DNA of 64,000 bases from Vicinamibacterales bacterium (GTDB lineage Bacteria > Acidobacteriota > Vicinamibacteria > Vicinamibacterales > UBA8438). Numbering within the stretch: the first letter of the stretch is position 1; each line of letters starts with the position of its first letter. Both the position numbers and the translations under genes were made by a program. The stretch is from positions 4,564,478-4,628,477 of the forward strand of contig OZ242205.1 of NCBI GenBank assembly GCA_965206285.1, in the 5' to 3' direction. The notes under the pieces were generated by a model that saw only the letters and a list, made by a program, of their open reading frames with translations, had not been told where the DNA came from and did not search any database. Below are positions 1,917 to 45,166 of this stretch, piece after piece.

Positions 1917-3362
1917 CTACTCGCCGTCGTCGTCGGTCTCGACGCGCTGCAGCGTCTCGCCCGCGAGATAGCGCTCGTACTGCTCGTCGGTCATGAACGC
2001 GACGTCCGTCCAGCCGTGGCCCATCTCGTCCATGGTCCGCGACCCCCAGCCGATCCAGGCGGAGGGGTCGGGGTTGTGCCGGTTGTTGGCGGTGTTGTCG
2101 TGCCAGGACACCGTATGCAGAATCGTGCCCTTCGGGAACGCGTGCGGCTTCTCGTAGGCGTAGACGATCTGCCACGTCTGCTCGTAGTTGGTGACGTCGG
2201 TCAGGATCTCGCGGCGGCCGTCGACGTGAATCGCCTCGAGCAGCATCCGGCTGCCCCGGAAGTGCATGTGGGGCTGGAAGCTGAGGATCAGCGCGGCCTG
2301 CGGCAGCGGCCAGAACCGCTCGTGGCGCGCCACCGTGTCGGGCGGAATGCTCAGGAGGGCGACCCCGTTCAGGGTGTTGTCGTCGATGAGGAGCCCGGTC
2401 GGCATCCTCTCCGCGTGCAGGTCGAGGTCGTGGCCGGCCGCGAGCAGCCGGTCCTCGACCGCCTCGCGGTTCAGCTTCCAGTCGTGCCCGATGCCGGTGC
2501 GGATGCGGTGGGCGGTGACGATCAGCTCGGGCGCCTGTCCCTTGGGATAGAACTTGATGCCGACCTTCTGCCGGTCGATGGTCTCCTCGCCCCACGGATG
2601 GTAGTGGGGGGCGAACCGGAACAGCCCCCCCGCCGGCAGCTTCCGCCCCGTGCCCTCGGGATAGTACTGGCCGGTGCTGCCCATGGCGTACTCGATGAGG
2701 TCGATCTCGCGGGTGTTCGACCCCATGCCGAGCCGGAACTCCTCGCGGTCCTCCGCCGTCTCCGGCACGCTGACGTACACGTGCGAATGGTGCACGCAGC
2801 AGTAGGCTTCGGGAATGATCTGCACCCACTTCACGTACCGGTCCTCGGTCAGCCCCGGATCGACGATCTCGGACGGATAGAAGTCGGCGCCCTCGGCGGG
2901 AATCTCGAAGCCCTTCTCCATCTGGACGATCAGGTCGGGCTCGCCGTAGGTCCACTCGTCCAGCGCCGCGAACTCGAGCGGGGGCGGCGCGTCGGCCGGA
3001 TTGCCCCGCGGCGCTCCGGCCGCGACCCACGCGACGATGGTGGCGATCTCGGCGTCGCTCAGCGACGGGTCGGCGACGTACTCGCCGATGCTGCGGTCGA
3101 GGTGCCACGGCGGCATCTGCCGGGCGACGACGCGATCGCGAATCGCCCGCGCCCACGGGCGGGTCTCCTCGTACGTCAGCAGCGACATCGGGGCCCCGGT
3201 GCCCGGCCGGTGGCATTTCTGACACGAGCGCTGCAGCAGGGGCAGCACGTCGCGGGTGAAGGTGGCGCCGTCGTTGGACTGGCCCGCGGCGGCGGCGTTC
3301 GGGCCGAAGAGACCGGCCGCGAGGGCGATGACGACGGCAACGCGTGTCGAGACGACGCGCAT
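1917..3362 (-). CDS. secreted c-type haem protein with a Cu(II) ascorbate-type monooxygenase-like His pattern
   Basis: 481-aa ORF with a signal-like N-terminus (MRVVSTRVAVVIALAAGLFG). A CxxCH site lies in FTRDVLPLLQRSCQKCH. His clusters CCVHHSH, PHYHPW and QPHMHFRGS, plus later Met residues, follow the HH..H..HxH..M order of PHM/DBH-type copper sites. The product assignment is inference. Confidence 0.55.
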   Translation of the reverse strand: MRVVSTRVAVVIALAAGLFGPNAAAAGQSNDGATFTRDVLPLLQRSCQKCHRPGTGAPMSLLTYEETRPWARAIRDRVVARQMPPWHLDRSIGEYVADPSLSDAEIATIVAWVAAGAPRGNPADAPPPLEFAALDEWTYGEPDLIVQMEKGFEIPAEGADFYPSEIVDPGLTEDRYVKWVQIIPEAYCCVHHSHVYVSVPETAEDREEFRLGMGSNTREIDLIEYAMGSTGQYYPEGTGRKLPAGGLFRFAPHYHPWGEETIDRQKVGIKFYPKGQAPELIVTAHRIRTGIGHDWKLNREAVEDRLLAAGHDLDLHAERMPTGLLIDDNTLNGVALLSIPPDTVARHERFWPLPQAALILSFQPHMHFRGSRMLLEAIHVDGRREILTDVTNYEQTWQIVYAYEKPHAFPKGTILHTVSWHDNTANNRHNPDPSAWIGWGSRTMDEMGHGWTDVAFMTDEQYERYLAGETLQRVETDDDGE

Positions 3363-3737
3363 GGCGATGACCTCCAGGAAGATGCAACCGAGCGGATGTC
3401 GTTCAGTCTAGTGGACTCCGCCGCCCAAATCCATACGCAGCCCGCGGCGCCGCCCCTTGGCGCACCATGAGATGGGGCCTGAATCGGCGAAATCGCTCGG
3501 CCGGCGCGCCGGAGCGACCTCGCGCGAAGGCGAACCGGCGGCTCGGCTCGGCCGGCCCTCGTTCGGGCGCAATCCGTGCCGCGGTGCGTGGTAGAGTCTC
3601 CGTCTGCGGTTCCCGCCGGCCCGCTCGGTTCGAGCGGGGCAGGCGACCGTTTGCCGGACCGGGGGAGCGCGGTTGCCCCGACAGCCCGCTCGGGCGTCGG
3701 CGGCGGGAATTCGAGGGCGAAAGGAGTCGGGGCCAGG

Positions 3738-36796: not shown

Positions 36797-37225
36797 TCAG
36801 CCCGATTTCCCCGATGAGGCCGGGCCGTGGTCAGGCAGGAGGAATCTGCACGACGGGCCCGGCGCACGGCCAAGGCGGGCGTCGAGCGTCGCCAGGGGTA
36901 CCGCCAGCGCCTCGGCGCAGGCGACGTACCAGGCGTCGTAGGTGGTCAGGTTGAGGCGCAGCTCCCAAATCCGCGAAGCGAACGGTTCGAAGCTCAGCAA
37001 CTCGATCGGAAGATCGACGATGTCCCGATAGCCCGCCGTCGCCTCCGGGCCGGAGATTTCACGCGCCAACTCGGCGCGCCGCAACACGTTGCCGGCTTCT
37101 ATCGGGGCCAGCTGTGGCGCCATCAGGGGTCTTTCGGCGGTCACCCTGCGAGCCCAGTCGCCGTCGGATCCGGTGTCCATCACCGCCGCCACGAGAACCG
37201 AGGCATCGACCACGACCGGCGGCAT
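36797..37225 (-). CDS. vapC: PIN-domain toxin
   Basis: 142-aa ORF. VVVDASVLVAAV.. and TYDAWYVACAEALAVPLATLDARL. Confidence 0.8.
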   Translation of the reverse strand: MPPVVVDASVLVAAVMDTGSDGDWARRVTAERPLMAPQLAPIEAGNVLRRAELAREISGPEATAGYRDIVDLPIELLSFEPFASRIWELRLNLTTYDAWYVACAEALAVPLATLDARLGRAPGPSCRFLLPDHGPASSGKSG

Positions 37226-37231
37226 CGCGTC

Positions 37232-37468
37232 TCAGCTCCGGCCGGCATCGAGGTGGCGGAGAATCTCGCTGGCGGGCAGGCGTGTCCGCGTGGCGGTCTG
37301 GCGCTCGCGCACCCGTTCGAGCCATCGATCGACGGACGGCCTCGACGCCAATCGTTCGAGCTCGCCGCGCAAGTACTCCTGCATCGACTTGCGGGCCAGG
37401 GCGGCGCGGGCGGCGAGCTCGTCACGCACCGCTTCCGGGACGTTGCGCACCGTGATTTGAACGGCCAT
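37232..37468 (-). CDS. vapB: ribbon-helix-helix antitoxin (FitA/VapB-like)
   Basis: Met46 of ORF 37232..37603. MAVQITVRNVPEAVRDELAARAALARKSMQEYLRGEL. It lies 6 nt upstream of vapC. Confidence 0.75.
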   Translation of the reverse strand: MAVQITVRNVPEAVRDELAARAALARKSMQEYLRGELERLASRPSVDRWLERVRERQTATRTRLPASEILRHLDAGRS

Positions 37469-37474
37469 GCTGTC

Positions 37475-37503
37475 ATTATGACGCCGTTGCTGTCTGTCTG
37501 CAA
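37475..37503 (-). promoter_or_regulatory. promoter candidate giving a leaderless vapB mRNA
   Basis: Minus strand TTGCAG (37503-37498), 17 nt, CATAAT (37480-37475), then 6 nt to the vapB ATG (37468). Confidence 0.4.
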
Positions 37504-37563
37504 TCGCCTGCGCGCCGTGGGCAGCGTCCCGTCGGCGCGCCGTGCGCTGTACCCGTACCAGGT

Positions 37564-39290
37564 TCACGCCAACGCGACATGCCGAATCGGCTCCTCCCGA
37601 CACGTGCGAACGCCCTGCATGTCAGAGCCGCGCTGGCGAACGGTTCGAAGCGCGAGTTCCTCAGGGAGGCAGGAGGAGAACTTCAGTGAGTCCGTAGCGT
37701 CGGCCGTTGTGGGGAAGAGATCGGCGGTGGTATCCCCGGGCAGGTCATCCAGTCGCCGTCTCAGGTCCTCGATGCTGACGTCATCGCGGAGCCGGATGGA
37801 GAGATTGTCCTCACGGGAGGTTGGGAGATGAAGCGGCCCAGCCAGCTCTCCGAGGATCGCGTTCGCCCGGAGGCCGGCGAAGGTCCACCAGCGGCTGGCG
37901 CCCGCTTGGTCGCGGACGATCGCGGTACCGGTAGCGTCAACCCAGGAGAAGTCTTCTTGGAACTCGTCGAGCTTCATCCGGGCGCGCTTGCTGATATCGA
38001 TGCGGAGCGATCCCTCGACAAGGACTTGGCGGATAGCGCGGCAAAGGTCGAAGGACAGCGGAACACCCGGTCCGATCCAGCGAGAGCGTCCCCTCTCGGT
38101 GGAGGCCTTCACGTAGGCGACGCGGTGGTCCCAGTCGATGTGAGACACCTCCCAGCTCCTGCCTGCGAGCAGGAGCACGACGGGACCGTCGCGGCGGACC
38201 TGGAAGGAGACCGTCGTCGGACGTTGCGAGGAACAGGCAGTTCCGGACGGTTCCGGGCCGTCGGCCGGTGCGGCCCAGTCGCTGGAGGAAGGAGGCGACG
38301 GTGGCGGGCGCGTCGATCTGGATGACGCGGTCGAGGTCGCCGACGTCGATTCCCAGCTCGAGCGTGCTCGTGGCGACGATGACACAGTCACGGCTCTGTG
38401 AGAACGCCTCCTCGGAACGTCGGCGCTCGTCCAGCGCAAGTGAGCTGTGGGAGACGAAGGTCTCGGTACCGGCTTGACGGAGTTCCGCGGCCAGCGCCTC
38501 GACACGGGCTCGACTGTCGCAGAACACGAGGCGTTTCTCGCCTCGGTGCAGCGCTGAGACTACCTTCGCTGCGTTCCGGATGCTGCCTACGTAGTCCAGA
38601 TGCGCTGTTGCCGAGCTCGCAGCTTCGCCCCCCCGGCGCGATGACGCGCCGCGGTCGGGAAGAAGCGGGGGCGAGCCATTCGAGGAGCGCCTCGGGATTC
38701 CCGATGGTCGCGGAGAGACCGAGGCGCTGAATCTCACGTCCCGCCAAGTGGCGCACTCGCTCCAGGACCGCGAGCAGATGCCAGCCTCGATCGTCGCCGG
38801 CGAAGGCGTGCAACTCGTCTACGACGACGGCTTGGATGTCCTGGAAGAGCACGCGGGGCTCCGCGCGGCTCGAGACGAGCATGACCTCGATGGACTCGGG
38901 TGTCGTGAGCAGAAGGTCGGGCCGTTCCTGCATGATGGCCCGCCGTCGGGAGGCGCCGATGTCGCCGTGCCAGAGCGCGACCCGCCGGCCGACCAGGGTG
39001 CCGTAGGCCCGAAGGCGCGACTCGATGTTGTTGAGCAGAGCCTTGATTGGACAGACGTAGAGCACGCTCAACCCGCTCCAGCGTTCGGTCAGCATCCGCG
39101 AAAGCAGCGGAAACACCGCCGCCTCGGTCTTGCCGCCAGCGGTGGGCGCCAGCAGCAAGGCGTGATCGCCGTCCAGCACGGGAGGAATGGCGTGCTCCTG
39201 GAGCGGCCGCAACGACGTCCACCCGAGCGAGTTGACGATGTGATGTTGAAGGGCGGGGTGCAGCCGCTCGAACGCGGGCTTGTGATTCAC
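37564..39290 (-). pseudogene. brxHI: Lhr-like DEAD/DEAH helicase of BREX (BrxHI-type), split over three frames
   Basis: Frame a (39290 to about 38630): LLLAPTAGGKTEAA, VVDELH, LSATIGNPE. Frame b (about 38626-38212): RLVFCDSRARVEALA..VATSTLELGIDVG..QRLGRTGRR. Frame c (about 38211-37564): VSFQVRRDGPVVLLLAGRSWEV... The first switch sits at a run of seven G (C7 on the plus strand, 38628-38634). Confidence 0.75.
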
Positions 39291-40600
39291 GGCTCCAGCT
39301 CGATGTCGTCCGGGGTGGTTGCGGCGCGGGCGTTGCGCTCGACATCGGTCAGCTCGCCGTCGGTCAGGGTCAGGGCATAGTCGCGCCGCGGGTCGAAGTC
39401 CGGGTGGAGGTCGATCCGATCGAGCACGTCCTGGACCAACTTCTTGAGGAAGACCCGTGGCGCGATGCCGATTCGGCCACCCAGACCGCCGGTGACGGCG
39501 CGGGCGAGACTGCTCAAGTACGGATCGTCCGCTCGATCAAGAACGCGTCCGGGGGCGGCGGCGCCCTCGGCGTAGAGATCACGAGTCTTCCGCCCCACGG
39601 CCTCCAGGCGCGAGAGGTCGAAGTTCTGCAACCGCACCTGCGGCGCCCGCGGGTTGTCGAAGCGCTGCGCGCCGGAGAAGTCCACGGCGAGCCGCTGGGC
39701 CAGGGGTGGCAGGCGCTGCACCCCTTGCGGTCCCTCGAAGAACGCGGGGGTCCCTGTGATCACGAGGTAGAGGCCCGGGAAGCGGCCAGAGTCGATCTCG
39801 TCGATTACCTGCCGGAGGGCATTCAGGCTCTTCTCTCGCACGTCGCTACGCACGCGTTGCAGGGTCTCGACCTCGTCGAGCACGACGACGAGCCCCGAGA
39901 AGCCCGAATCGCGCAGGATGACGAGCAGGCCCTGGAGGAAGCTGAGTGCGCCGAAGTGGTCGAGGTCGCCCTTGACGCCCGCGTACCGCTTGGCGGCGGC
40001 GCCGACGTTGGGCTGCCCGCCGACCCAGGCCAACAGCGCCTCGGCCATGGCGCGGTCGTTCCCGGCGACGGCCCGTCGATAGGCGCGGAGCGCCGCTGCA
40101 AACGACGGAGCGTGGCGGGCAACCTGCGCGAGACGCCGTTCCATGAGGTCGGTCGTTCGGGCCAGGAGCGCCTCCGCATCACCCTCCGCCACGCTGCCCT
40201 CGGCGAGCACGTCTTCCTCCAGCGCGTAGAACCAGTTGTCGAGGATGGACCGGAGGGCGCCCTGCTGGGTATCCGCGGTCGAGAGGCGTTCGGTCAGCCG
40301 GCGGTACACCGTCTCGAGGCGGTGCAGCGGCGTCTCCGTCTCGGAGATCTGCACCTCGGCCGCGGCGAACCCTTCGCGTTTCGCGCGTTCCTGCAGCCAC
40401 CGCACGAAGAAGGTCTTCCCGCTGCCGTACTCTCCGCGAACCGCCTTGAACTTCGCGCTCCCGGCTGCGACGGATGCCAGCTCTTCGCCCACCACGGCAA
40501 GAGCCGGCAGGCCGATGCCGATGGCGCGGGCGTCCGGATACCGGTCGCGGATCGACTTCACCTGGGCGAGTACCTGCGCCAACGATGGGACGCCGGTCAT
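39287..40600 (-). CDS. brxD: BREX system ATP-binding protein BrxD (DUF2791-type)
   Basis: Intact 437-aa ORF. Walker A GEYGSGKTFF, Walker B LVVVLDEVE. Length and the pattern ..PLHRLETVYRRL.. and ..YLVITGTP.. fit BrxD. The ATGA overlaps the downstream helicase start and an upstream frame. Confidence 0.75.
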   Translation of the reverse strand: MTGVPSLAQVLAQVKSIRDRYPDARAIGIGLPALAVVGEELASVAAGSAKFKAVRGEYGSGKTFFVRWLQERAKREGFAAAEVQISETETPLHRLETVYRRLTERLSTADTQQGALRSILDNWFYALEEDVLAEGSVAEGDAEALLARTTDLMERRLAQVARHAPSFAAALRAYRRAVAGNDRAMAEALLAWVGGQPNVGAAAKRYAGVKGDLDHFGALSFLQGLLVILRDSGFSGLVVVLDEVETLQRVRSDVREKSLNALRQVIDEIDSGRFPGLYLVITGTPAFFEGPQGVQRLPPLAQRLAVDFSGAQRFDNPRAPQVRLQNFDLSRLEAVGRKTRDLYAEGAAAPGRVLDRADDPYLSSLARAVTGGLGGRIGIAPRVFLKKLVQDVLDRIDLHPDFDPRRDYALTLTDGELTDVERNARAATTPDDIELEP

Positions 40601-40679
40601 GGGCGGTCCTTCCCGTCGCGCAGCAGCTTCCAGGTGGTCCCCATTCGCGCGCCCGGTTCCCTGCGCAGCCCGCGGCGGC

Positions 40680-41240
40680 CCCGGCGGTGCTCACGGCGGT
40701 CTCGTTCACGCGGGCGAAGAACGTCTCGTCGCCGATCTCCTCCCGCAGCCGCCGAGCGTCGTCGAAGAACCCCGCGCCGCGGTAGACGCCCGGCGTGGGC
40801 GCGTCGGGGTGCAGCTTGGCGACCCGCGCCGCATAGCCCCCCAGCACCGCCGCATCGAGGCTCGGCTTGCCGATCATGTGATAGGGCGCGAGCAGGAAAC
40901 GCCGGCCGGCGAGCCAGTCACCGTGGCGCGTGACGACGCCTTCGAGACCCTCGGCGGCGCAGGCCTCCGCGTGCTGCTGCAGCAGCAGGTGGAGCACCAC
41001 CATGAAGTGGCTCTTGCCGCTGCCGAAGCTGCCGTGCAGGTAGGCCGCCTTGCTCGAGCCGGACGCGAGCGCGCCCTTGATGAGGTCGAGCGCCCGGTCG
41101 AAGGCGTCGGCGAACTGCGGCGTCACGACGTAGGTCCGCAGCGTCTCTGCGGGCTTCGCCACGCCCTCGGCGAGCCGCAGGACGAAGTCGTCGCGGTGCA
41201 CCCGCTCGGGGATGTCGATCAGGTCGCGGAGCGGCGTTAT
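40680..41240 (-). pseudogene. pglY: 5-prime fragment (~187 codons) of pglY (DUF499 P-loop ATPase of BREX type 2)
   Basis: ITPLRDLIDIPERVHRDDFVLRLAEGV..YVVTPQFADAFDRAL..AAYLHGSFGSGKSHFMVVLHLLL..FFARVNE, after which sense is lost. The start position reads ATA. The frame runs on into brxD with no stop. Another frame ends WKLLRDGKDRP-stop at the brxD ATGA. Confidence 0.65.
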
Positions 41241-41728
41241 GCCGGGTCGGTTCCCCTGCCCATCTTCGCTGACGCCGGCTGGTGGGGGACGCCGGCTCCC
41301 GCCTCGTCGGCCTCCGAAACGAGCGCCTCGACACGCCGGGCCGCCCAGCCGACGACGGCCGCCGCGGCCTCCATGGCCTCGTCGTATTCCTCTCTCGTTG
41401 TCGTTGCTCTCTCGTCGGCCGTGTTCGGATACCTCCCGCCGCCGCTGTAGAGCGTCAGCGCCTCCCCCTTGCGGACCTCGTCGGGAATCGCCTCGCCGAT
41501 CCGTGCCGCCCGGTCGAGCAGCAGGCCGATGTCGTGCGTGTACGGAAACACTTCGCCGCGCGCGATCATCACGCCCTTGACTGCCTTTTCGGCCCCCAGG
41601 TGCGCCTCGGAGCACAACAGCCGCAGGTTCAGGCCGGGCTCGTGCTTGCCGGCGATCTTCAAGTGATCCCGCGCTTCGTCGATCCACAGTGGCGCGGCGC
41701 TCGCTTCAAGCGCCCGGCGCTGATTCAT
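41237..41728 (-). CDS. HEPN domain protein (toxin partner of MNT)
   Basis: 163-aa ORF. ..SEAHLGAEKAVKGVMIARGEVFPYTHDIGLLL.. fits the PF05168-type HEPN helix pattern. Overlaps the upstream NTase gene by 23 nt. Confidence 0.7.
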   Translation of the reverse strand: MNQRRALEASAAPLWIDEARDHLKIAGKHEPGLNLRLLCSEAHLGAEKAVKGVMIARGEVFPYTHDIGLLLDRAARIGEAIPDEVRKGEALTLYSGGGRYPNTADERATTTREEYDEAMEAAAAVVGWAARRVEALVSEADEAGAGVPHQPASAKMGRGTDPA

Positions 41729-42041
41729 AAACAGTCCTGCCTTCCCGTAGCGCCGGTGCTATCACGAGCCAATAGGAGTCCTTGTGCCGAAGGAGATCTT
41801 CCGGCCAGACGACCACGACGTCGACCGGAGGACGCGGCCTCGGCAGGTTGCGGTAGATCAGGGCCGCCGTTTTCCGTTGATGACAGTGGTCCTTCACGAC
41901 GAGGAGGTCGAGGTCGCTCGAGGAGGTCATCTCGCCCCGAGCAGCGGAACCGAACAGGATGATCTTCTCTGGCGCCACCGCGTCGACGATGCTCTCGACG
42001 ATGCGCCCGACAACGCTGTCCAGCCGCTCTTGATCCATCAT
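41706..42041 (-). CDS. minimal nucleotidyltransferase (MNT-type antitoxin)
   Basis: Met33 of ORF 41706..42137. KIILFGSAARGEMTSSSDLDLLVV carries the GS..x(9-11)..D.D NTase signature. Confidence 0.75.
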   Translation of the reverse strand: MMDQERLDSVVGRIVESIVDAVAPEKIILFGSAARGEMTSSSDLDLLVVKDHCHQRKTAALIYRNLPRPRPPVDVVVVWPEDLLRHKDSYWLVIAPALREGRTVYESAPGA

Positions 42042-42099
42042 CGCGATTATGCCGCGCCGGCCGGCGCGGCGGCAATCGCCGCAAAGGTGCCCGCCCGGG

Positions 42100-43229
42100 T
42101 CACGTGGCTTTTCTGCGGCGGCCTCGCCCCGTCCCACCGCCCGGCGGCGGCCAGTCCCGCAGCGACTCGCGGGTCAGCGAGAGCGCCCGCGCCTCGTCGT
42201 CGATGAACGCCTCGAAGTAGTCGCCCATCCCGATGTCGAACTCGGGGTCCGGCTCGTTGTGGTACTGCCGTACCCACGGCAGCAGCTCCAGCAGGGCCGC
42301 GAGCAGGGGCGCCAGCCGCTCCGCCGTCCAGCCCTCCTGCTCCCGCATCCGGCTGAAGTACCCGGCGACGGCCCGGCTCTGCTCCAGCGCGTCCAGCCCG
42401 CCCACCCGACCACCAGCGACGGGTCGGCGTCGCGCTCGCAGCCCGGCAGGCTGACGAAGCGTTCCTTGGGCACGTCGAGCTTGCCCCGCAGGCGCCACCA
42501 CACGCCCTTGCGGAAGTCGGCTGCCGCATACCGCGGCGGGACGGGGACGGCGCCGACCTCGGCCGCCTTGAGCGCCACCGCCGCTTCCGGCGTCAGTCGA
42601 TCAGGGTCCGCCGCGGGCAGGGCGACCCGCGCGTCGATGGCGTCCTCCATCCGCTGCAGCGCCCAGGTGTGCTCCCAGGCCGCCCGCTTGCGGAGCCCCG
42701 AGGGCTTGTAGCGCAGCACCGGGAGCAGCGGGACGCTCTCGTCCTCGACCAGTAGGGCCACCAGCTTCGCGACGTCGAAGTCGGCACGTCCCGTGTACAG
42801 CGCGGCCACCTGCAGGAACTCGGCATCGTCCCGCATCTGGTCCGCCAGCGTGGCGGTGGTCGTGAGGCGCGGCTCCAACCAAAGCGACGGCGCTTCCAAC
42901 CGGTCGAGCAGCCAGCCCCGGAGCGCCCGCTCCTGCTGCGTCTCCCACGGCTCGTCGTTCCAGCGGCGCTTGTACTCCGGCTGCTCGATCAGGGCCACGC
43001 CGCCGATCTCCGAGATCCCCGCACACTGGCCGACCGCGTACCGGGCGCTGGTCCGGCGGCGCATCGAGGGCATCGAGAACAACACCAACGTCGAGGCGTG
43101 CCGCTCGAACCACTTCGTCTCGACCTCGCCGGCGGCCATCTTCCGCGCGAGGACGATTTCGAAGGCGCGCTCGCCAAGGCGGACAGCGGGTACGTCGCTG
43201 GCAGACATACAGAGGTCGTCCTCTGTCAA
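42100..43229 (-). pseudogene. pglX: 3-prime third of BREX adenine methyltransferase gene pglX, with one frame change
   Basis: IEQPEYKRRWNDEPWETQQERALRGWLLDRLE, RYKPSGLRKRAAWEHTWALQRMED, LRGKLDVPKERFVSLPG and GWAGW. After a switch near 42395 it reads LDALEQSRAVAGYFSRMREQEGW..LPWVRQYHNEPDPEFD..LRDWPPP. No methyltransferase catalytic N-terminal part is present. Confidence 0.6.
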
Positions 43230-43282
43230 TCCGTAGAGCCGGTAGCAGCGCCAGTCGCGGCCGGGGGCTGCGGGCGCCGGCG

Positions 43283-43440
43283 GTTGCGGTTGGTGACGGC
43301 GCGCTGGGCTTCTGGTCCGCGTTACGGGACGTGTGGCCGAAGACGACCGTGCAACGCGACTGGTGCCACAAGCTCGCCAACGTGCTCGACAAGCTGCCGA
43401 AGCGGCTTCGACCGCGGGCGAAGCGGGCGCTACGCGAGAC
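43283..43440 (+). mobile_element. IS256-family (mutator-type) transposase remnant, ~52 codons
   Basis: AVGDGALGFWSALRDVWPKTTVQRDWCHKLANVLDKLPKRLRPRAKRALRE matches the conserved central block of IS256-family transposases (GDGALGFW..QRCW.HK..NVL..LPK). No intact ORF or ends were found. Confidence 0.7.
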
Positions 43441-43509
43441 GAGCCGGAGGACGAAGTCGTCGCGGTGGATCCGTTCCGGGATGTGGATCAGGTCGCGGAT
43501 CAGCGGCAT
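43438..43509 (-). pseudogene. pglY: second pglY 5-prime fragment (24 codons) truncated by the IS scar
   Basis: ATG CCG CTG ATC CGC GAC.. translates as MPLIRDLIHIPERIHRDDFVLRLV. By eye it is about 85% nt identical to 41165-41235. Confidence 0.6.
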
Positions 43510-44450
43510 GTCGTCGAAGGCGCCGCCGACATCGAGCGCCGTTGCTGGAGGATCTCGGGAATACGCCGTTCCGCGTGCTGAACGATGGTGACCGCGATCT
43601 GCCGAACATCCCGAAAGTCCTGCTCGGTAGTCTCCCCGCCCGAGCCCGGATACTGGGCTTCTCCCCCGTAGTCCGATAGAAGATGCAGCTTCTGCCGATC
43701 CAGCGGAGGCAGGTTCTCGCCTGCGCGCTGCGCCTGCTCGGCCAACGTCCCCAGCTTGTGGGTGAACTCCACGGCAACGCCATGCGCGGTGATGATGCCT
43801 TTCAAGGCCCGCTCCGCCGCCGCCGGGAGATTGATGCAGCGGCTGTCGAGCTCCACTTCGGGATCCGGGTTGCGGCTCTGCGCCAGCTCGCTCCGCGCCT
43901 TGCGAAGCCAATCGAGCGCTTCCTCCGGCTTGTAGAGGCGATTCTGCATCATGTCCGCCGCCCTCGCGCACCTGTTGGCGGCGCTTCCGCGCCGCACCGC
44001 GTCCGAAATCTCGACGGCCGTGGTCCTGTCGTAGACGGTGATGCCGTCGCGGAGAGCCGGCGCCAGGACCAGACTCAGACTGTCCTTGTGCCGCTCGGCA
44101 TGCTCGGGGGTGGCCGCGATGACGTCGACCGGGGGCCCTTCCGCGGACAGGCTGCACTGCGCCCGAGCCGCGAGCTCGCGGCTGTTGCAGCCCGCCTTGA
44201 CGATGAGGAGATCGAGATCGCTCCCGGCCTTCATCATCCCGCGGGCGCCAGACCCGAACAGCACGATCCGATCCGGGTCGACCGCCCGGACGATGCGCTG
44301 TACGACGTCGGCGAGGATGCGACCGTTCGGAGATCCATCCTCGTCGACCCACCCGCGTCGCGACTCGAACGAGCCGTTCGCGTCGAGCGCCGGCCGCGCA
44401 GGCGTCGTCGCCGTCGATGCGCTCATGAAGACCTCGGAATCACCTTCCAT
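43500..44450 (-). CDS. single-chain nucleotidyltransferase-HEPN fusion protein
   Basis: 316-aa ORF. NTase half: RIVLFGSGARGMMKAGSDLDLLIV..PVDVIAATPE. HEPN half: ..WLRKARSELAQS..AAERALKGIITAHGVAVEFTHKLGTL..DYGGEAQYP. The domain junction is near 44000-44020. Alternative start at Met9 (44426). Confidence 0.7.
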   Translation of the reverse strand: MEGDSEVFMSASTATTPARPALDANGSFESRRGWVDEDGSPNGRILADVVQRIVRAVDPDRIVLFGSGARGMMKAGSDLDLLIVKAGCNSRELAARAQCSLSAEGPPVDVIAATPEHAERHKDSLSLVLAPALRDGITVYDRTTAVEISDAVRRGSAANRCARAADMMQNRLYKPEEALDWLRKARSELAQSRNPDPEVELDSRCINLPAAAERALKGIITAHGVAVEFTHKLGTLAEQAQRAGENLPPLDRQKLHLLSDYGGEAQYPGSGGETTEQDFRDVRQIAVTIVQHAERRIPEILQQRRSMSAAPSTTCR

Positions 44451-44692
44451 CGACAGGGTACACCGCCGGCGGTCCGCGGCAAACTCCCACTTGGAACGGC
44501 TGCCGTGGCCGCGATTCCTGGTACCCCTCCTGACCGGCGTTCACACGCCGACATCGGAGGAACGGCGCGCGCTTGGTGTCTCTCGAGGCGGCGTGAGTCG
44601 CTTGCCCGCGACGAAGGCGCGCCGCGTGCGCGAGGCCCCTCAGCCGAATCGGCTGGACGCTGAAGCGGGGCTGCCGCCACCGACGGCTGACT

Positions 44693-45166
44693 TCAGGGTT
44701 CCGTGGACGGAGGGTGCTCCGAGGGGGGCGTGGCGCGCTCGTCCCGCGGCGCCTCCTTCGCGATCATCACTTCGGTCGCCTTGATCAGCGCCGTCGCGTC
44801 GTCGCCGCGTTTCAATCCCAGCTCGTCGAGGGCGTCGCGGGTGATGACCGCGGTCAGCCACTGGTCGCCGATGCGGAGGCGAACCTGGGCGACGAGGCCT
44901 TCCCGCCGCACCTCGTCGACGATGCCCTGCAGGCGGTTGCGGCCGCTGATGCGGACGAGCACGCCGCCGCCGCGCGGGCTGCCCTCGGGGCGGGAGGGCG
45001 GCCGGTCGGTGCGGGCGAGCAGGCGTTCGACTTCCGCTTCCGATATCCGGTGGTGTCCGCCGGCGGTGCGGGTGGTGCGGACGCCGCCGCGGTAGATCCA
45101 GTGCTTGAGGGTCGAGTAGCCGATGCCGAGACGCTCTGCCGCCTGTCTCACCGTCAGCGTGGCCAT
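44693..45166 (-). CDS. transcriptional regulator: excisionase/MerR-type HTH plus a single TOBE (molybdate-binding) domain
   Basis: Met21 of ORF 44693..45226. MATLTVRQAAERLGIGYSTLKHWIYRGGV, then ISGRNRLQGIVDEVRREGLVAQVRLRIGDQWLTAVITRDALDELGLKRGDDATALIKATEV. Divergent from modABC. Confidence 0.75.
   Translation of the reverse strand: MATLTVRQAAERLGIGYSTLKHWIYRGGVRTTRTAGGHHRISEAEVERLLARTDRPPSRPEGSPRGGGVLVRISGRNRLQGIVDEVRREGLVAQVRLRIGDQWLTAVITRDALDELGLKRGDDATALIKATEVMIAKEAPRDERATPPSEHPPSTEP

Follow-up and report, generated by a model that had tools for sequence, protein, structure and literature searches.

Two small gene modules, each pairing a minimal nucleotidyltransferase (MNT) domain with a HEPN domain, lie among the remains of a type 2 bacteriophage exclusion (BREX/Pgl) locus in a Vicinamibacterales bacterium. 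The window analyzed here is the whole 64,000-nucleotide stretch of contig OZ242205.1 (positions 4,564,478 to 4,628,477). In it, one module (copy 1) consists of two genes, and the other (copy 2) is a single chain. A preliminary description, drawn from the letters of the window alone, held that both modules keep a conserved, translationally coupled place at the start of the BREX gene pglY, and suggested from this a functional link. Our analysis bears out the modules and changes the setting: they are probably toxin–antitoxin (TA)-type cargo, stranded in a BREX locus that has decayed.

Two MNT–HEPN modules

Pfam searches with hidden Markov models (HMMs) support the nucleotidyltransferase (NTase) and HEPN calls in both modules, which lie on the minus strand. 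Copy 1 is the split pair. Specifically, its MNT gene (41706-42041, 111 amino acids) matches PF01909 (E 3.7e-9; 37.3 bits against a gathering cut-off of 21) and PF18765, and its HEPN gene (41237-41728, 163 amino acids) matches PF05168 (E 8e-15; 55.4 bits against a cut-off of 22). The two genes overlap by 23 nt at the coordinates first reported. The MNT protein carries the NTase motifs GSAARG..SDLDLL..VDV, and the HEPN protein keeps a THD histidine and the motif RYPNTAD (RYPxxxD, that is, R-x5-D). Many standalone 163-amino-acid homologs of this HEPN protein exist. The pair is 88% (MNT) and 80% (HEPN) identical to its counterparts in L103, an intact BREX-2 locus. The HEPN stop codon (41239-41237) adjoins pglY-like codons. 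On the other side of the pair, a putative sigma-70-like promoter (TTGCCG-18-CATAAT, 42046-42075, minus strand) ends 4 nt ahead of the MNT ATG. It is the sole promoter-like match in 40500-44800, where shuffled sequences yield an expectation of 0.1, and its hexamers are conserved in the related loci L022 and L023. The placement of this promoter-like site 4 nt from the start codon suggests a leaderless transcript.

Copy 2 holds both domains in one open reading frame (ORF) of 316 codons (43500-44450, minus strand), with the NTase domain at about 44318-44028 (PF01909, E 2e-6; 28.6 bits against 21) and the HEPN domain at about 43952-43542 (PF05168, E 5.9e-11; 43.0 bits against 22). Homologs and gene callers point to ATG 44426 as the probable start, which gives a protein of 308 amino acids. 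An exact look-up of the 316-amino-acid ORF returned no match because gene callers begin at this second ATG. The NTase motifs, GSGARG..SDLDLL..VDV, are intact. The HEPN half reads THK and QYPGSGGE. Under the HEPN-T criterion of PMC3710099 (Rx4-6H, or R..D with an alternative upstream histidine), the motif arginine is lost, with QYP in place of RYP. Other clades of the fused family (P0014-P0024) retain RYP, as does the fused orthologue at L023. The stop codon of the fused ORF (TGA, 43502-43500) falls 10 nt inside ATG 43509, the start of a pglY-like N-terminus, as the preliminary description had noted. The genes beside the fused ORF are a MerR/TOBE regulator and a pglY stub. Between copies 1 and 2, identity is 53% over 97 amino acids in the NTase halves and 32% over 107 amino acids in the HEPN halves, in keeping with the earlier view of the modules as old and diverged.

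The fused architecture is common to about 30 protein clusters of 39-99% identity. All members of the fused family (P0001-P0029) have a methionine at the HEPN boundary (MMQNRL, MVQKRL or MVRTRR), located at 43950-43960 in the window, and GAGG lies about 10 nt upstream of it there. This methionine may be a vestigial or a still-used internal start.

An AlphaFold model of the fused protein contains an MNT fold and a HEPN fold. The model is moderate, with a predicted local distance difference test score (pLDDT) of 74.8 and a predicted template-modeling score (pTM) of 0.52. The HEPN half, a four-helix fold, aligns with the HEPN structures 1wol, 1ufb and 3o10 at template-modeling (TM) scores of 0.70-0.73, and the MNT half matches 2rff and 8xeo. 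Neighbors of the whole chain are HalB (9dbj, E 3e-5), ANT(4')/kanamycin nucleotidyltransferase (6un8, 1kny), AadA, LinB, DrrA and GlnE, all at low TM-scores of 0.3-0.4. A sequence search of the PDB gave marginal MNT matches only.

Both modules recur intact in metagenomes. Ten contigs, obtained from different samples with different assemblers, match the window collinearly at 98.8-99.95% identity; the alignments are gap-free except in L001 and L002, with one gap opening apiece. All seven contigs that span the fused ORF carry it intact (L001-L007, where it is called as 308 amino acids), and all ten carry the split pair intact. Synonymous and nonsynonymous population changes number 7 and 10 in the fused ORF, 4 and 3 in the copy 1 MNT gene, and 3 and 0 in the copy 1 HEPN gene; there are no stops or indels.

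A dismantled type 2 BREX locus

The window has a G+C content of about 71%, and its raw ORF lists are noisy. An actinomycete, Streptomyces-like source, considered on the strength of this composition, was rejected, as the genomes nearest to the window belong to Vicinamibacterales (Acidobacteriota). Third-position G+C reveals that the minus-strand coding frame changes repeatedly between 38 and 44.5 kb. The reference for the decay map is L103, which encodes PglW (1423 amino acids), PglX (1225), MNT (111), HEPN (161), PglY (1242), PglZ (917) and BrxD (438), followed by BrxHI. The window locus is flanked by the modE/mod operon on one side and by an adh_short gene on the other.

Next to copy 2 lies a truncated pglY stub (43423-43509, minus strand), consisting of ATG 43509 and 23-29 codons (MPLIRDLIHIPERIHRDDFVLRL...) that align by tblastn with L103 PglY amino acids 1-29 at 65% identity. 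It runs into a remnant of an IS256/Mutator-type transposase of about 55 codons (43274-43438, plus strand; PF00872 positions 219-279 of 379, E 1.9e-6). This insertion sequence (IS) remnant marks the breakpoint between the copy 2 fragment and a pglX pseudogene, whose N-terminal side is cut there. The pglX remnant (42100-43256, minus strand) carries the DUF7008 C-terminal domain, with PF22654 matches in two frames, and tblastn against L103 PglX recovers only amino acids 839-1209 of about 1225 (43256-42151), with a frameshift near 42400 and the stop of the pglX frame at 42102-42100. Within it, a 90-bp inversion (43003-43092) places PglX amino acids 898-927 on the plus strand. An imperfect 11-nt inverted repeat (42991-43001 and 43095-43105) flanks this inversion. 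The same interval had been a candidate for an ISL3 or second transposase fragment, a reading rejected when tblastn identified it as inverted pglX. Among the metagenome variants, the pglX remnant is variably broken by stop codons.

Downstream of copy 1, a second pglY stub (40686-41240, minus strand) retains codons 1-185 of about 1242. It is 93% identical to L103 PglY amino acids 1-185 and matches the NCBIfam PglY model at positions 3-183 of 1296, with 222 bits against a cut-off of 1700. Its start codon is ATA (41240-41238). A single G>A change at 41238 altered two codons at once, making the HEPN stop TAA where it was TGA and the pglY start ATA where it was ATG; in the orthologues at L022 and L023, the pglY ATG stands within an ATGA overlap with the upstream stop. 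The ATA codon is present in all ten metagenome variants. A 3.08-kb deletion, relative to L103, joins this stub out of frame to the last 24 or so pglY codons (40669-40597). The pglY tail and the ORF that follows it make up 39287-40669 (minus strand). In that 437-amino-acid ORF (40600-39287), a 2.78-kb deletion has joined pglZ, after codon 33, in frame with brxD from codon 36 onward, yielding a PglZ(1-33)::BrxD(36-438) chimera as judged by blastn breakpoints against L103 and comparison of the N-termini. The chimera scores 607 bits against 350 in the BrxD equivalog model, and PADLOC calls it BrxD. Its designation as a complete brxD was rejected on the L103 comparison, in which its N-terminal 35 amino acids are replaced by PglZ. 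Finally, a brxHI helicase remnant (38204-39290, minus strand) has a frameshift near 38625, with the DEAD and Helicase_C domains in different frames and two tblastn high-scoring segment pairs against L103 BrxHI.

Searched by tblastn with L103 PglW, the full 64 kb of the window gave no match, and the same approach found neither the pglX methyltransferase domain nor a full pglZ there. What remains of pglX, pglY, brxD and brxHI is clearly orthologous to type 2 BREX/Pgl genes and in canonical order. Unlike a type 2 BREX system, the window lacks pglW and the methyltransferase part of pglX, its pglY genes are stubs, pglZ is reduced to 33 codons, and brxHI is frameshifted. Judged from these lesions, the BREX locus evidently cannot work, all of its core functions being destroyed, and the MNT–HEPN modules appear to be the only intact genes left in the wreck. 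The neighbors reported earlier for copy 1 thus need qualifying: the pglX-frame stop and the pglY-like codons are where they were said to be, but pglX is a pseudogene and both pglY genes are stubs.

Turnover in the pglX–pglY slot

Relatives reveal how such modules sit in living loci. L103 and L104 are the intact prototypes, with the order pglW-pglX-MNT-HEPN-pglY-pglZ-brxD-brxHI. Their MNT (111 amino acids) and HEPN (161 amino acids) genes have the same 23-nt overlap as those of the window, and HEPN overlaps pglY by 4 nt (ATGA). The split lineage, taken as at least 66% HEPN identity, has pglY or a pglY stub beside it in every case examined (L022, L023, L102-L107, L116 and the window). In L102, the pglY gene is disrupted by an IS110 element, and in L116, a split-type pair has pglY downstream. 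L023 (7114-8001) carries a 295-amino-acid fused orthologue of the split module, with a 45-amino-acid linker. In L022 (7585-8001), HEPN is cleanly deleted and the NTase alone ends on an intact pglY start; the pglX gene of L022 is interrupted by a DDE transposase. Only the MNT and HEPN genes and a 75-amino-acid pglY stub persist in L105-L107, at the syntenic site modE/mod...adh_short...GCS2 (L105:7698-12256). BREX decay there appears to be independent of that in the window, and the module survived there too. A relative of the split lineage at 51% identity is unlinked to pglY.

The fused lineage is more loosely associated. Only its 88% relative (L014/L015) precedes pglY-pglZ-brxD, and five of the six fused homologs looked up (85%, 65%, 62%, 53% and 41% identity) lie among unrelated or other defense and TA genes. 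L014 is a low-coverage long-read contig, with likely frameshift errors in pglX and pglY. The position and coupling to pglY that had been assigned to both copies are found in the intact L103 and in L014/L015, but not in the window, where no pglY is left.

Comparison of slot contents with the surrounding genes indicates cargo replacement. Compared with those of L103, the BREX core proteins of L014, L022, L023 and L024 show 74-91% identity. The slot modules of L014 and L103 are far more diverged (NTase 54%, HEPN 31%), which argues for replacement of cargo rather than co-divergence of the two modules with pglY, a scenario we rejected on these values. The L014 slot also holds other cargo, and in L024, a close relative, the slot is empty and pglX abuts pglY. 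The MNT/HEPN junction is likewise labile: within the split lineage it is a 23-nt overlap (window, L103), a 16-nt spacer (L105) or a 45-amino-acid in-frame linker (L023). The preliminary description had taken the fused chain to imply a HEPN toxin controlled in cis by its own nucleotidyltransferase. That idea loses force, since the junction switches among fused, overlapping and spaced states within one lineage, and the motif arginine of the fused copy is lost as well.

How general the arrangement is was addressed from both sides. From the pglY side, an alignment of PglY N-termini retrieved, from GTDB species genomes, 80 loci (L022-L101) in Acidobacteriota, Pseudomonadota, Planctomycetota, Actinomycetota and others. 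Fifty-nine of these have a recognizable pglX upstream of pglY and were used for the slot count. In 19 of the 59, pglX abuts pglY; the other 40 carry 0.8-7.7 kb of cargo. Pfam scans of 180 candidate ORFs identified Fic/DOC proteins (8), OLD-type AAA_21/AAA_15 ATPases (8), GmrSD (5), ParA-like proteins (5), Schlafen/AlbA_2 (4), MqsA (4) and PIN domains (at least 4), with Uma2, FitA, Phd/YoeB, DUF433/DUF5615 and reverse transcriptase also present. These counts are lower bounds, as small genes are under-represented by greedy ORF picking and only the top 25 families enter the Pfam summary. The pglX–pglY junction is, then, a busy accessory-gene slot, filled in about two-thirds of the surveyed loci. 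A database protein, P0122, joins the DUF7008 C-terminus of PglX to the N-terminus of PglY in one ORF; it reflects either read-through or the fusion of two neighboring genes whose slot is empty.

Among about 70 loci surveyed, 4 have MNT and/or HEPN genes upstream of pglY. Searches with tblastn and with a narrow local HMM reached only close relatives, the Vicinamibacterales loci L022 and L023, and wider HMMs with targeted Pfam scans added L046 and L048. The slot of L046 (Desulfobacterales) contains an MNT gene, a 95-amino-acid ORF of unknown type and a PIN gene. In L048 (Magnetococcales, 2401-3550), the order is reversed: a HEPN gene (PF05168) and then an MNT gene (PF01909) are packed into the space from the pglX stop to the pglY start, apparently a module of this kind captured independently. 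From the module side, 67 of 80 related loci in Joint Genome Institute (JGI) metagenomes have both domains, all as two-gene pairs, 66 of them in the order MNT to HEPN. Where at least 400 bp of downstream sequence is available, pglY follows in 1 of 52 pairs (L116). Taken with the empty slot of L024, these counts do not sustain the proposal that MNT/HEPN is a conserved component of type 2 BREX. The companion argument, that random TA insertion is the less likely origin, runs counter to the data, which point to cargo replacement in a slot filled by varied TA and abortive-infection-type genes. From the sequences compared, MNT/HEPN is seemingly a rare occupant of the slot and independently captured.

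Cargo, accessory or enzyme

MNT–HEPN TA modules are exemplified by HI0073/HI0074 and TTHA/TT1696-type pairs, and among their relatives the type VII MntA/HepT systems have been studied most closely. Like these modules, those of the window and its relatives have a small MNT gene and then a HEPN gene, overlapping or tightly spaced, a GSx(9-13)DxD NTase motif, a four-helix HEPN fold, and a scattered, mobile distribution among defense and TA genes. Unlike in type VII MntA/HepT, the HEPN halves belong to PF05168, and the Pfam scan gave no PF01934 (DUF86/HepT) match, so the window modules do not appear to be type VII members. The HEPN motif is a further difference, being R-x5-D with an upstream histidine in the split copy and having lost its arginine in the fused copy.

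The preliminary description was aware of no account of MNT/HEPN as a type 2 BREX component. A connection between such domains and BREX is, in general terms, already published. In 2013, sporadic HEPN genes were reported inside Pgl operons, with suicide or burst-limiting roles proposed (PMC3710099); according to the same paper, MNT-fused HEPN domains are typically devoid of RNase residues and probably inactive. A 2026 article in NAR (PMC12839542) catalogs nuclease "backup effectors" embedded in BREX loci, including HEPN domains, some of them fused to minimal nucleotidyltransferases, along with PIN, Schlafen, OLD-ATPase and GmrSD. The pglX–pglY slot, in our survey, holds the same set of effectors. 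The window modules resemble the BREX-embedded effectors of both papers in being HEPN genes, sometimes MNT-fused, between core genes; they differ in that the BREX part of the window is dead.

We consider it likely that the modules are MNT–HEPN TA-type cargo of the variable pglX–pglY slot of type 2 BREX islands in Vicinamibacterales-like Acidobacteriota, and that the window locus is a decayed example. In intact relatives, the module has a promoter-like site to itself and ends in a HEPN stop that overlaps the start of pglY. By analogy with characterized MNT–HEPN pairs, HEPN would be a growth-arresting RNase-type toxin, restrained by MNT via binding and/or nucleotidylylation, and in an intact island the module could serve as a backstop. 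The window locus would then be a composite of two BREX islands at one chromosomal site, in which a rearrangement associated with IS256, two internal deletions, frameshifts, the small inversion and the mutated start codon put every core function of BREX out of action, while both modules stayed intact. Persistence after BREX decay could reflect an addiction-like cost of losing the module, or simply its small size. The fused form would be one of several states taken by an MNT/HEPN junction that is labile in evolution. With its motif arginine lost, the HEPN half of the fused copy may regulate the NTase or bind its substrate instead of being a toxin.

Several points weigh against this reading. In the NCBIfam MntA model, the two modules score 29 and 23 bits against a cut-off of 60, and the HEPN domains are not DUF86/HepT. 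Toxin, RNase and nucleotidylylation roles are predictions, by analogy, for the HEPN-T (PF05168) lineage. The population substitutions are too few to prove purifying selection on the modules, and small ORFs could survive by chance in a young pseudogene field. Furthermore, all four MNT/HEPN hits in the 1.08 Mb of surveyed loci, as located by local HMMs, lie directly upstream of pglY. Such four-of-four placement would fit a degree of positional preference over and above random insertion; the 1.08 Mb consists mostly of core genes and is not a fair background.

That same placement, which recurs across three phyla in the 80 loci, speaks for a different explanation: that the module is a dedicated BREX-2 accessory wired to PglY, as an abortive-infection backstop or a regulator of pglY translation, with its position and the stop/start overlap under selection. 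In intact loci, modules of either lineage terminate precisely at the pglY start, the split lineage keeps its company with pglY or a pglY stub wherever examined, the MNT promoter-like site could also drive pglY-pglZ-brxD, and PMC12839542 proposes the backup-effector idea. We nonetheless find this explanation unlikely. The module is present in few pglY loci and pglY follows almost none of the related pairs; L024 does without the module, and L022 has lost HEPN yet retains an intact pglY. Fused homologs at five levels of identity are not near BREX, the gene order is reversed in L048, and many unrelated types of cargo fill the slot. Overlap with a downstream ATG is weak evidence of selection, given that GC-rich ORFs commonly extend to the next stop, and the window has no PglY to be coupled to. 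Somewhat less readily still would we accept a combined version, in which MNT–HEPN was captured repeatedly and independently at the pglY start (twice in Vicinamibacterales, and in Magnetococcales and Desulfobacterales) and acts as a co-transcribed, BREX-coupled abortive-infection or island-stabilizing (anti-deletion) element. Were capture selected in this manner, survival of the module after BREX decay at one site in several genomes would amount to genuine addiction. 

For copy 2 there is a further alternative, serious though unlikely: the fused chain is not a TA at all, and instead is a two-domain nucleotidyltransferase whose HEPN half is non-catalytic and binds substrate or regulates, as in aminoglycoside nucleotidyltransferases and the Hailong signal synthase HalB. 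The N-terminal pol-beta NTase and C-terminal helical bundle of the chain are shared with ANT(4'), AadA, LinB and HalB, which are its whole-chain structural neighbors; the window clade has replaced the arginine (QYP) while its NTase motifs remain intact; and the general condition of MNT-fused HEPN domains described in PMC3710099 fits. Against the enzyme stand the low whole-chain TM-scores and the moderate model, the RYP motif of the other fused clades and of L023, and the conserved boundary methionine and split/fused interconversion, which indicate recent two-gene TA ancestry. Identity to ANT(4'), AadA, LinB and HalB is 11-15%, and the setting is a defense island, not a resistance cassette. Among the neighboring genes examined beside the fused ORF, no HalA-like partner was noted, and the NCBIfam HalB model matched only the copy 1 MNT protein, at 25 bits against a cut-off of 190. 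The resemblance to Hailong HalB seems, on the predicted model, to be structural only. As for an artefact of sequencing or assembly, either in the fusion or in the whole patchwork, the fused and split forms do differ by junction indels only, and the likely errors in L014 illustrate the hazard. Such an artefact is nevertheless extremely improbable, with ten collinear contigs, the fused ORF intact in each spanning one, and the fused architecture present in some 30 protein clusters; the fusion proposed from the window is real.

If the modules are only cargo, their value is descriptive, and no new kind of system is revealed. The window documents the decay of a type 2 BREX locus, marked by truncation linked to an IS, two clean deletions, the loss of a start codon and a PglZ::BrxD chimera formed in frame, and it presents MNT–HEPN modules that outlast the defense system that carried them. 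These observations can be put to use in annotating BREX-2 loci and in choosing intact, L103-type loci in which to test an embedded TA as a second layer of defense.

We note that another small, intact TA pair adjoins the dead BREX genes. Beyond the brxHI remnant, on the minus strand, a FitA-like ribbon-helix-helix antitoxin gene (37603-37232) is followed directly by a PIN toxin gene (37231-36797), the pair spanning 36797-37603.

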